Source: a virus
Taxonomy: Duplodnaviria; Heunggongvirae; Uroviricota; Caudoviricetes
Direction: 5' to 3' (one strand)
DNA length: 46,854 bases
IMG/VR virus record: IMGVR_UViG_2548876964_000013
Location: 1-46,854 of that record
This document shows, piece after piece, positions 39,001 to 42,000 of the stretch. Position 1 is the stretch's first letter. Every line of letters begins with the position of its first letter. The position numbers are program-made.

Positions 39001-42000
39001 CGCCACTATCGACACAGTGGGAATTGAGCTCGTTAAATATGGTTGTAACACGTTTATTTGTCCCGACAATTCGATGGAGCCGGGAAATGTACCACTATAT
39101 ATCGGCCTGCCACGAATTGATCCAGCAAGCCAGACTGCCAAGCTGTCATTCCAGGAATGGTTGTCAGAACAAAAAGAAAAAATAGACGTTGATTGCGGAT
39201 GTGTAAGCATCGAAACGCTTACGCACTGGATGAAATCCGCTTATGAGGCTGGTAACTCTCCGGTAACTCCGGATAGTTGGATAAGCTGTAGTGATCGAAT
39301 GCCTGAAAAGGGCCAGAACGTGCTTATTTCGGTGAATTTCGATAGCTCTCTGGTTGAACCGCTAATATGCTCCGCACGCTATACCGGAAGCACCTTTCGG
39401 CGCGGAGATGCAACGATTAAGCCGGGTAATGGTATTGAGCAAGCAACTCACTGGATGCCGCTACCAGAACCGCCGCAGGAGGTTAACCGTGGCTAACCTG
39501 CAACTTGGTCAAAGGTGAATAAGAATCCTCGCACTCGCGGGGATTTCTTTTATCTGAACTCGCTACGGCGAGCTTGAGAGGTTAAAACGATGAAAAATAA
39601 TGTAATGAAAAATGGAACTATCGACAGCCAGGCTCTGTTGAAAATGGTGAATGAAGCGCGGAGACTGTGCGGTGAAAAAGAAGTACGCAACAACGACTTC
39701 ATTGCACGCATCAAAGATGAACTTGATGGGGGGGGGTTACGAAATTTTCGTAACCCCCATGGATAAGAAAAAAGGCGGTGCGGATCAGGTTGTTATTGTG
39801 ATGACCTATAAACAAGCGCTTCGGGTTGCCGCTCGTGAATCTAAATCCGTCCGTCGTTCGCTGGTCGATCAACTGGAGTCAATGCAACAGCAACTGCAAC
39901 AAAAAATCACCTCGAAACATTCGACTAACGGCCTTGAGGAATTCCGTAAAGCACGGGCGCTGAAAATGACCGTCGATACAATGAAAGACCTTTTCGGCTT
40001 CCTCCCCAACCTTGCCCCTGAAGCTAAACAAGTCGTTGCCGCCAGCCTGGTTAATCCCGTTGTAGGCGCTAACGTAATCCCGCTACCGATGATTAATGAA
40101 CATTACTATTCGGCGTCAGAAGTTGGAGCAAAACTCAAAATATCCGCTAACAAGGTTGGTCGCATTGCCAATACCTACATGCTCAAAACCGAACAATACG
40201 GGAAATGGTTCATCGACAAATCCCCGTATTCGGATAAGCAGGTAGAAAGCTTCCGATACAATAATCGGGGAGTACGGAAGATTGAAGAAATCCTGGACGC
40301 GGAGAACAACGCAGAATTCGGAACCTGATATCCTCCACTCTCCGACGCCGCCAGAATGACGGCGCGGTGGTTAAGCATGAGGCGAAATTTCTGCCGGGCG
40401 GTATTTTGTTGAGAGATGAGATACGTCAACTTCTCTTTCCGCTTTTTCAAGGCTCCATGCCGTCTGGAGACGAATCCATGAAGACGGAGTTCCCCCCAGG
40501 ACAGCAGCGAGACGAACAGCCATTTCAGGAGATATTGTCGCATTACCTGAAACCAGTCGCTGAACAGTGGAAGGCGCGACATCAAGCGCTCTTGCCAGTT
40601 CCCTGATTCCAATATTCTGATCTTCCAGAATATCAGCAATAATTTCTCCAGGATGAGGGGGGGTAAACATCGCCATTAGTGGTAATCCTCGTAGTTAAAC
40701 GAAGCGGATCTGGAGTTTTTCCCTGTAGCACGGGCGAATTTTTTCAACGTTGCAAATGATGGCCTTATTTACACTCAATGGTTAATTCTTTCCTGTTAAA
40801 TCCCTGTTCCTTTAAAATGTCTTTATATCCATTTTTACATAGGGCATTGGCTTTATCATAGCATACTCCCCATGGTGTAGCGGCACCACAGGCAATGATG
40901 TACTGTTCCTTTTCATCTCCGCGATTTATTTTCGTAGTGGTAGTGCATCCTGATGTTGCCATGCAGAAAATTATCAAATAAAAGAACCTTGCTATGATGT
41001 TCATTATCGGATCTCTAATAGGTGCTGCAAGTGACACTATTCCCATACCTGGAGCAGTTTGTTAGTGTGGCACTTCATATGCCATGCAGATTAGTTCCGG
41101 GCGCGAATCTCAGAGCGAACCTGTGAAATGGAGTGCCCTTTGCCTAGGTTCTCACGAATAGCGTCGAGTGGCGGCGCGGCTGAGTGTATTAACCACGCTT
41201 CCATTGCTTTGTCGCGTTCATTCAGTGCACGAAGCCCTTCACGAATAACTTCGCTTTCTGAAGCGTATGCACCGGAAGCCACACGGGCGCGCACCATGTC
41301 AGCCATTTCGTTGGTTAATGTAATGCTGAATTGTTGGGTTGTACGCATGTTAAACCTCACTGAGTAGGATAGAACACTATTCGATGATAGCACGCCACTT
41401 GTTGACGACAACACATATCCGGGATTATATTCTTCGCACGGTCGAGTTGACCGTCGGGATTCGAACCCCGGATAGAAACCGCGACAGAGACACGCCGCGA
41501 GCGTGTTTTTTATTGTCGTATGCACGCGCACATCTGAATTATGGTGGGGCGTATAGGGGAGCTGAAAAGCTCGCCGGTTGGTTTCCCGGTAGTTCGAACC
41601 CTGTACGTCTCACCACCCGATGATTCGAACCTAACGGTGGTGATAGTTTAGAAACCACTCGAGGGCGTCATAATGACAACTCAAGTTTCTGTTGAAACAC
41701 TCTCCACGATTACTTACAAGCAGATCCCCGTTATCACTACCGAACTTTTGGCGCACCTTTACGGCACAGAAGCTATTCGTATTCGCCAGAATCACCACGA
41801 AAACAAAGGTCGTTTCATTGAGGAAAAACACTTCTTCAAACTTGAAGGTGAAACTTTACGTGAGTTCAAGCACAGAGTAGCTTTTAACTACTCTGTGAAA
41901 ATCGCCCGTAACGTTCGCTCCCTCATCCTCTGGACAGAACGCGGCGCAGCCCGTCACGCAAAAATGCTCGAAACCGATCGGGCGTGGGAAGTGTTCGAAA

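Follow-up and report, generated by a model that had tools for sequence, protein, structure and literature searches.

Poly-G and poly-C contingency loci occur in genes of Neisseria, Campylobacter, Haemophilus, and Bordetella, and Escherichia coli offers an example of contingency through simple sequence repeats (SSRs) in the heptanucleotide repeats of neuO on prophage CUS-3. Another class of mutable site is the quasipalindrome: imperfect inverted repeats in E. coli are hotspots that mutate toward perfection via intramolecular template switching, as described by the Ripley model and in thyA and lacZ reporters (PMC7202029). Here we describe a run of nine G residues (G9) that shares features with both. 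It interrupts an antirepressor-like gene in a 46,854-nt stretch of DNA (positions 1 to 46,854 of the Caudoviricetes record IMGVR_UViG_2548876964_000013; here referred to as the window) that corresponds to a Shiga toxin 2a (Stx2a) prophage. The locus is probably a real, inherited, and still-slipping frameshift pseudogene of a nonessential accessory gene, with a poly-G run that would have come from a conserved coding palindrome, and neither an evolved switch nor a sequencing error.

The G9 tract is the longest homopolymer in the window (coordinates of this and the other features of the locus are collected in Table 1). As an earlier note on this DNA had pointed out, the open reading frame (ORF) that begins at 39590 ends early. 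It runs from an ATG for 58 codons to a TAA at 39764 to 39766, and a second ORF (39651 to 40328) overlaps it in the +1 frame. Removing one G in silico to give G8 fuses the two into a single 738-nt ORF of 245 amino acids (the note had estimated ~246), while adding one G to give G10 leads to truncation as well. The Prokaryotic Genome Annotation Pipeline (PGAP) agrees, annotating the G8 form in AR-0427 as an intact 245-amino-acid protein (WP_047618678.1) and the G9 form in H6437 and in O111:H8 strain 05-3004 as a 739-nt "hypothetical protein, frameshifted" pseudogene. The natural tract states that we found are GGGGAGGG, G8, G9, G10, and GGGGGTTGG. The ancestral state is GGGGAGGG, which codes for Gly47-Glu48-Gly49.

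An identical G9 allele is present in 29 of 5426 complete E. coli genomes. Among the 115 complete genomes that contain the region, exactly G9 was found in 29, G8 in 7, and G10 in none; alleles were counted with 91-nt context queries, for which any single difference lowers the identity below 99%, since in 39-nt queries the run is masked as low-complexity sequence. When GTDB representative genomes were scanned for the pattern with exact flanks, no match was obtained. The genomes with G9 span O157:H7, O111:H8, and other serotypes and come from many laboratories, and the same allele appears in at least 25 phage records. It also recurs when a strain has been sequenced more than once: G9 is found in both records of strain 272 (HQ424691 and CP018239), of strain F765 (AP012534 and AP026082), and of the pair 6535WT/6535NalR, and, for PA2 and PA8, in the phage record, the chromosome, and the WG5 lysogen (WG5::PA2 and WG5::PA8) of each. 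The PA2 and PA8 phage genomes were homopolymer corrected using Illumina reads (PMC4587872). Across 38131 to 45729 (7.6 kb), the window and VT2phi_272 differ by zero indels, and the three O111:H8 genomes closest to the window all have G9, with the 05-3004 prophage matching the window at the tract. The genome counts, the resequencing, the Illumina correction, and the lack of indels indicate that G9 is an inherited lineage state rather than a consensus error, that is, a real, vertically inherited frameshift allele and not an assembly artefact. The earlier note had leaned toward the opposite view, under which the prophage really has G8 and the ninth G came from a consensus error in the homopolymer. 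We consider this highly improbable: the tract is the kind of run in which such errors might be sought, being the longest in the window, and the window has three private single-base insertions (22, 19048, and 22460) relative to a near-identical prophage, one of which breaks stx2A and is present in 0 of 555 other genomes, but when four strains and two lysogens were sequenced again, the same G9 came back each time, and neither of the other two runs named in the note shows a discrepancy.

The alleles form a series from which a history can be read. Among otherwise identical 738-nt genes, the tract is GGGGAGGG in a viral contig (L105), G8 in L107, L010, and AR-0427, and G9 in the window. A single A-to-G change in the Glu48 codon is the only difference between L105 and L107. 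E. coli lineage genes have GAG at codon 48 and CCC at codon 56, such that the stem of the palindrome could be extended as GGG-GAG-GGT ... ACC-CCC with a single A.C mismatch, and the A-to-G change removes this mismatch to yield a perfect 13+13 palindrome. As single-stranded DNA, the palindrome folds with -13.6 kcal/mol (z of about -5 to -6), compared with -11.2 for the imperfect repeat with the ancestral GGGGAGGG, and it is among only four perfect inverted repeats with a stem of at least 9 bp in the window. Similar to the quasipalindrome hotspots, then, the ancestor is an imperfect inverted repeat with one mismatch, and the mutation perfects the repeat, raising its complementarity with the base templated by the other arm. 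Unlike in the reporters, the event is inferred from natural alleles, and its side effect was a slippage-prone homopolymer and then a frameshift. Because the A-to-G change exactly removes the mismatch and template switching is a known mechanism for such changes, we infer that the G run came about as a side product when the palindrome was perfected and that slippage caused the frameshift afterwards.

The proposed sequence of events begins with a family palindrome in the region coding for the N-terminal domain, whose stem in the E. coli and Stx genes is extendable except for one A.C mismatch. In a first step, of which the outcome is seen in the alleles, GAG became GGG, most likely through quasipalindrome template switching, replacing Glu48 with Gly and fusing two short G runs into G8. 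A second step, again seen as its outcome, would be replication slippage by +1 G to G9, whereupon the frameshift cut the N-terminal domain in half and the allele spread with the phage lineage. In a third step, which the alleles show directly, the run is slipping still on evolutionary time scales, roughly at the rate expected for an 8- to 9-bp G:C run.

Continued slippage is seen among close relatives. Over 5.09 kb, a single G is all that separates H6437 (G9) from AR-0427 (G8), and thirteen near-identical Stx2a phages (the LC727 series) comprise five with G8, six with G9, and two with G10. We aligned the LC727 phages with MAFFT and used only the collinear first 27.6 kb, since the tail modules differ; this segment contains 51 variable single-nucleotide polymorphism (SNP) columns, almost all of them private to single records. 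The two G10 phages have no derived SNP in common, indicating that G10 arose twice independently, and G8 and G9 are interspersed relative to two informative SNPs. From this homoplasic pattern, at least four tract-length changes can be counted. As a control, we looked for the 80 window homopolymers of 6 nt or more in the same phages; 36 could be located, and only the G tract varies (0 of 35 others), which argues against generic miscalling in this series. Set against ~20 substitutions in 27.6 kb, the four or more events would make the per-site rate, as a rough estimate, some thousands of times higher than that of substitutions. A rate of this size is well below that of classical contingency loci. 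Indel rates in E. coli climb exponentially with run length, and 8-bp G.C runs are hotspots (PMC8510543); the estimated rate is thus of the order expected for an 8- to 9-bp G:C run in mismatch-repair-proficient E. coli. These data indicate that the G tract is a slipped-strand mutational hotspot.

Two further records bear on tract length. LC727856 (Stx2a_2409) has G10 and LC727903 (Stx1_2409) has G9 (801-nt match, 100%), and thus, judging from the record names, strain 2409 holds two prophages with the antirepressor-like gene that differ in tract length. The fifth state, GGGGGTTGG, was found in L007, which is the same as L114 (IMGVR_UViG_641736225_000049); its 9 bases put the gene, which otherwise does not differ from that of the window, out of frame, and either a GGTT duplication or a GG-to-TT change could have produced it.

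The run is not a feature of the family. Homologues of the repaired protein (1566 matches) are all single ORFs of about 241 to 251 amino acids, found in prophages of Escherichia, Salmonella, Klebsiella, Serratia, Pantoea, Erwinia, Proteus, and others. The tract codes within the motif D-E-L-[D/E]-G-E-x-Y, in which 112 of 114 cluster representatives have Gly-Glu (GGN-GAG), with one Gly-Asp and one Gly-Gly-Gly. The in-frame G8 allele therefore corresponds to a Glu48-to-Gly substitution (E48G) at a near-invariant residue. These comparisons indicate that the G run is very recent, limited to one allele lineage, and made by a harmful-looking change, and a young, unconserved run is the reverse of what one would expect if selection maintained the tract. 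One protein, P0026 (254 amino acids, 10 member sequences), reads D-E-L-E-G-G-G-Y, with Glu48 changed to Gly in a Glu46 background; it would give an in-frame run of nine G and may represent a second occurrence or a recombinant.

Slipped-strand phase variation, which the earlier note had raised as a possibility, fits the mechanics of the locus but not its conservation. As at SSR contingency loci, the homopolymer lies in the 5' part of the ORF, its length sets the frame, single-unit changes toggle that frame with G8 in register, and its length is polymorphic among close isolates. Lengths have moved in both directions (to G8 and to G10) among the near-identical phages, and ON and OFF alleles exist in identical backgrounds. 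That the tract is an adaptive contingency locus, in which a regulator is ON at G8 and OFF at G9 or G10 so as to diversify lysogen behavior, nevertheless seems unlikely to us. The tract is not kept as a repeat across homologues, being broken by GAG in all but two of the representatives, and occurs in one near-identical allele lineage only; the presumptive ON allele already carries E48G; and OFF is inherited stably, also after transfer into a new host. Moreover, the host is mismatch-repair proficient, the homoplasy fits run-length-dependent indel rates (the rate itself being an estimate), and there is no known selective rationale for switching an antirepressor-like gene. A mutational hotspot in a decaying gene remains our preferred reading of the tract.

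In contrast to the G run, the core of the palindrome belongs to the family. Homologues from other genera of the Enterobacterales keep the stem with a changed sequence (GGT-TAC-GAA...TTC-GTA-ACC, CAC-TAC-GAA...TTC-GTA-GTG, ACC-TAC-AAA...TTT-GTA-GGT, and TTT-TAC-ACT...AGT-GTA-AAA). We assessed covariation in 30 distinct sequences, with the stem at alignment columns 18-27/31-40. Of the alignment cells in the stem, 81.6% were paired, compared with 27 to 56% when the stem was slid along the alignment, and the covariation score was 0.477, against 0.153 ± 0.018 for shuffled alignments (0 of 500 as high) and at most 0.137 for slid stems. Seven stem pairs have changed on both sides, one of them through all four Watson-Crick types. 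RNAalifold, applied to 165-nt segments, independently recovered this helix as the only one backed by compensatory changes. Pairing extends to the choice of amino acids and codons: in 30 of the 39 distinct sequences that represent 113 loci, the codons flanking Tyr pair as perfect reverse complements with those flanking Val (Gly GGT/Thr ACC, Thr ACC/Gly GGT, Phe TTT/Lys AAA, and His CAC/Val GTG), and the residues at positions 49/55 and 51/53 follow the paired nucleotides. The synonymous Phe codon tracks its partner without exception (GAA with TTC 14 times, AAA or AAG with TTT 10 times), and stem flanks and cores combine in 19 ways. A synonymous-codon null based on family codon usage gave 5.08 ± 0.25 Watson-Crick pairs of 9, compared with 8.33 observed. 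Together these results point to the stem as a nucleotide-level constraint laid over solvent-exposed beta-strand positions. Conservation in the family does not reach the two outermost pairs (columns 16-42 and 17-41), and at 17-41 the bases pair in the G-run allele alone.

In Proteobacteria, perfect inverted repeats show preferential conservation, which fits with template switching (PMC5941160); this mechanism can create and maintain hairpins, including apparent compensatory double changes (PMC8794818). The present stem resembles such conserved inverted repeats and coding palindromes (PMC5941160, PMC8794818, PMC6649704) in being a short perfect repeat within coding sequence that shows long conservation and homogenisation of its arms. 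It differs in being a specific case, not described before, within a family of phage regulatory genes, in which Gly/Thr, Thr/Gly, Phe/Lys, and His/Val pairs are dictated by codon complementarity. Another explanation, compatible with a real frameshift, is that the hairpin is a functional cis element (a regulatory RNA or DNA stem-loop or a structure-specific site) and that its extension and the G run were selected; we regard this as possible, though doubtful. The 10-bp stem kept across genera, the two-sided changes, the synonymous codons chosen to pair, and the residues that follow the nucleotides all favor it. So does a group of four relatives with a Rha-type N terminus (L042, L059, L060, and L062), which have their own perfect 10-bp hairpin, AATCGGCCGA-NTTT-TCGGCCGATT, at nt ~137 to 160, with its center at nt ~149, nearly the same distance from the start as in the window gene (nt 156); in L060, this hairpin contains a compensatory pair of synonymous changes. 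Template switching alone, however, can maintain or homogenise inverted repeats and so mimic compensatory double changes, and the loop sequence varies. A search of Rfam 15 with 39300 to 40500 gave sub-threshold noise only, with no family at the gathering score, and no larger conserved structure was seen. Counts of G.U versus A.C wobbles did not distinguish sense RNA from antisense RNA or DNA and thus pick no strand.

Similar hairpins are present in only some related genes. Among the most distant homologues, which we inspected directly, four have a different hairpin and two have none. The ORF6N gene at 41673 to 42350 in the window contains a perfect 10-bp inverted repeat with a 7-nt loop (41871 to 41897; CACAGAGTAG-CTTTTAA-CTACTCTGTG) about 200 nt into the gene, which is kept with compensatory changes in some lineages and lost in many; other homologues have tandem-repeat expansions in this region, with LRVTLSNSQN units. 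The idea that all antirepressor-class genes carry such a hairpin was not upheld, as the ORF6N hairpin is lineage restricted and often lost, which also counts against a functional element. In its most specific form, the proposal would be that Rha-like or antirepressor-like prophage genes have, ~150 nt into their coding region, a stem-loop that works as a cis element, for example, by controlling a potentially toxic regulator or as a structure-specific site, and that its G-run extension couples it to a heritable on/off state; we offer this only tentatively and consider it rather unlikely.

The proximity of hairpin and run also raises programmed recoding, whereby full-length protein would be made from the G9 allele by transcriptional slippage, with one G lost from the mRNA, or by +1 or -2 ribosomal frameshifting with the aid of the hairpin. 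Nine G residues would let a tRNA-Gly or an RNA-DNA hybrid re-pair in shifted registers, the stable stem-loop begins inside the run, and the G9 allele is common. However, the homologues are uninterrupted single ORFs without a slippery run, and the two-frame arrangement is not conserved; the shift needed would be +1 or -2 rather than the usual hairpin-stimulated -1; and, in contrast to known stimulators, the hairpin stands at zero spacing from the run. In bacteria, efficient slippage during transcription has been documented chiefly at A/T runs, which weighs further against recoding, and we judge it very improbable. A route to a partial product could be termination-reinitiation, which the arrangement of Met57 and the stop codon of the short ORF might permit and which would yield a 189-amino-acid C-terminal fragment. 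Database entries P0027 and P0028, both of 189 amino acids, are consistent with gene calls from Met57.

Several points weigh against our reading of the locus as an inherited, still-slipping pseudogene with a palindrome-derived run. Some of the G8 and G10 calls in the LC727 series, especially both G10, could be consensus errors at the longest homopolymer; G10 is absent from the RefSeq complete genomes. The window has its three private 1-bp insertions, and its own tract length rests on agreement with relatives. As the analysis is based on assembled sequences, a single culture may be heterogeneous for G8, G9, and G10. What speaks for a template-switch origin is only the position and identity of the A-to-G change, and the same picture would result from an ordinary transition or if a stronger hairpin had been selected. 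Finally, G9 could outnumber G8 (29 versus 7 genomes) because loss of function was favored and not neutral.

We next consider the protein that the gene would encode. The repaired protein matches PHROG 1726 ("anti-repressor") with an E value of 8.9e-95, residues 6 to 241 aligning with profile positions 13 to 264 of 264, and the truncated 58-amino-acid fragment is matched by PHROG 12199, a 58-residue profile. Searches of Pfam and NCBIfam with the repaired protein gave no match, with no ANT, AntA, P22_AR_N, P22_AR_C, KilA-N, Bro-N, or Rha domain at an E value of ≤1, and a sequence search of the PDB gave no match. An AlphaFold model (25 sequences; mean predicted local distance difference test score of 73.8) predicts an N-terminal alpha/beta domain (strand 10-12, helices 13-26 and 34-44, strands 51-55 and 66-72, and helix 73-80), long helices in the middle (85-158), and a C-terminal helix-turn-helix with a beta wing (175-243). 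Fold searches revealed resemblance to phage proteins annotated as antirepressor, KilAC, KilA, or Rha, and the C-terminal domain resembles the winged helix-turn-helix DNA-binding domains of MerR, RacA, and Xis. The N-terminal domain may be Rha-like, and the description "antirepressor-like" rests on the PHROG label and the fold resemblance.

Like the Ant, KilA-N, Bro-N, and Rha regulators (for example, P22 Ant and Phi24B Ant), the predicted protein has two domains, a similar fold, and a place in a prophage accessory region. Members of the same class are found nearby, namely the ORF6N protein in the window and Bro-N+P22_AR_C genes beside the Klebsiella homologues. Unlike P22-type Ant, it has no Pfam ANT-class match, its C terminus is MerR/RacA/Xis-like, and antirepressor activity is a label only. 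We rejected its identification with the experimentally studied Phi24B antirepressor, since Phi24B Ant is a P22 Ant homologue and a different gene (PMC3064807). The four relatives with a Rha-type N terminus, from Intestinirhabdus, Pantoea, and Chimaeribacter, have a 234-amino-acid ORF in which a classical N terminus of this type (MSSREIA.LTGK.HK.VL.DCRK) is fused to the same middle and C-terminal part.

The window corresponds to the Stx2a prophage of E. coli O111:H8 strain 05-3004 minus two IS1203 copies, and it is 99.6% identical to VT2phi_272/PA2/PA8-type phages across most of the early region. The frameshifted gene is at the far end of the early-left region, after a DUF551 gene and a terminator-like hairpin, and its neighbors are HigA-like and ParD-like antitoxin genes, the ORF6N-domain gene, and an integrase gene. 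A promoter scan near the gene found only a chance-level match, overlapping the start codon. The IS1203 copies of 05-3004 lie at window positions ~17563 to 17566 (lysis region) and ~45246 to 45251 (integrase gene); since both are absent from the window, its integrase ORF (44290 to 45534) is uninterrupted. A Rha-family gene at window positions ~32815 to 33554 (L027, 14645 to 15418) is annotated by PGAP in 05-3004 as a pseudogene with an internal stop, so that this prophage has several decaying regulator-like accessory genes.

Table 1. Features of the frameshifted antirepressor-like gene and its surroundings (window coordinates)
Feature	Position	Strand	Remarks
Terminator-like hairpin followed by a T-rich tail	39523..39546	+	Between the DUF551 gene and the frameshifted antirepressor-like gene
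Shine-Dalgarno-like GAGAGG	39576..39581	+	8 nt upstream of ATG 39590; read from the sequence
Frameshifted pseudogene, labelled "anti-repressor" by PHROG 1726; 245 amino acids if repaired	39590..40328	+	PGAP, PHROG, homologues, AlphaFold2 model, fold searches
Truncated N-terminal ORF of the G9 allele, 58 amino acids	39590..39766	+	46 native residues before the tract; break in the middle of the N-terminal domain, past helix 2
G9 homopolymer	39728..39736	+	In-frame G8 plus one G
Perfect 27-nt palindrome, GGGGGTTACGAAA-T-TTTCGTAACCCCC	39732..39758		13-nt arms, 100% complementary; G tract forms the 5' arm
Family-conserved hairpin core, 10-bp stem 39734..39743/39747..39756, loop 39744..39746	39734..39756		Codes for residues 48/49-56, x-Tyr-x-x-x-Val-x
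Rest of the gene, ancestral frame, from Gly49 to the stop codon	39735..40328	+	ORF calls from ATG 39651 (225 amino acids) or internal Met57
ATGGATAA, with in-frame ATG (Met57, ancestral frame)	39759..39766	+	5 nt upstream of the stop codon of the 58-amino-acid ORF; read from the sequence

Other lesions and homopolymers of the window fall into different classes. The earlier note had listed a G7 run and a C8 run, both of which exist: G7 (40657 to 40663) is in frame, invariant in 13 of 13 related phages, and identical in 05-3004, and C8 (3967 to 3974) is intergenic and identical in 05-3004. Further runs are C7 at 2058 and T8 at 19041. The longest perfect inverted repeat in the window (3986 to 4016; ACAAAAACCGGAGCC-G-GGCTCCGGTTTTTGT, with a 15-bp stem and a 1-nt loop) is also intergenic, beside C8, and has A and T runs on its flanks in the manner of a bidirectional terminator. 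Two broken genes, stx2A and nanS-p, had been taken in the note as signs of sequence error. The split in the nanS-p/DUF6645 gene at 20128 (ORFs 20000 to 20986 and 19050 to 20147) is a single-base deletion (GG to G) that is identical in three complete O111:H8 genomes (05-3004, 08-4347, and 08-4455), where PGAP marks the gene as "frameshifted"; being common to all three, it is inherited and not an artefact. The stx2A lesion at 22460 (minus strand; ORFs 21754 to 22566 and 22454 to 22714) is an extra base, A4 to A5 on the plus strand, that shifts the frame. It is private to the window, being absent from all 555 complete E. coli genomes with that segment, and stx2A is intact in 05-3004; it may be a sequencing error in the record or a unique toxin-null mutation. 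The remaining private insertions are +G at 22 and T7 to T8 at 19041 to 19048, at the start of a small ORF after nanS-p. Over 46.8 kb, one SNP accompanies the three insertions relative to the 05-3004 prophage, a ratio that suggests a few residual indel errors in the window rather than homopolymer errors throughout the assembly, as the note had supposed.

For annotation, these findings mean that the G9 frameshift in PA2/VT2phi_272/O111-type Stx phages is best handled as a real pseudogene allele that should not be "corrected" and that the 218- to 225-amino-acid "antirepressor" calls in several phage records are mis-started remnants. Some lineages keep a regulator-like accessory gene intact (GAG or G8), and in others, the clinically important O157:H7 and O111:H8 among them, it is dead (G9). 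As a pseudogene, the locus is ordinary, while the covarying coding hairpin is an undescribed conserved element; the moderate interest of the locus lies in this hairpin and in the clean three-step mutational history. Fluoroquinolones, which are reported to stimulate quasipalindrome mutation in E. coli (PMC7202029), also serve as inducers of Stx prophages, an example being norfloxacin (PMC3064807). For mutation biology, the alleles provide a complete natural series from quasipalindrome to perfected palindrome with a homopolymer to slippage frameshift, which would illustrate that template switching can prevail over conservation of the protein and give rise to a hypermutable tract.

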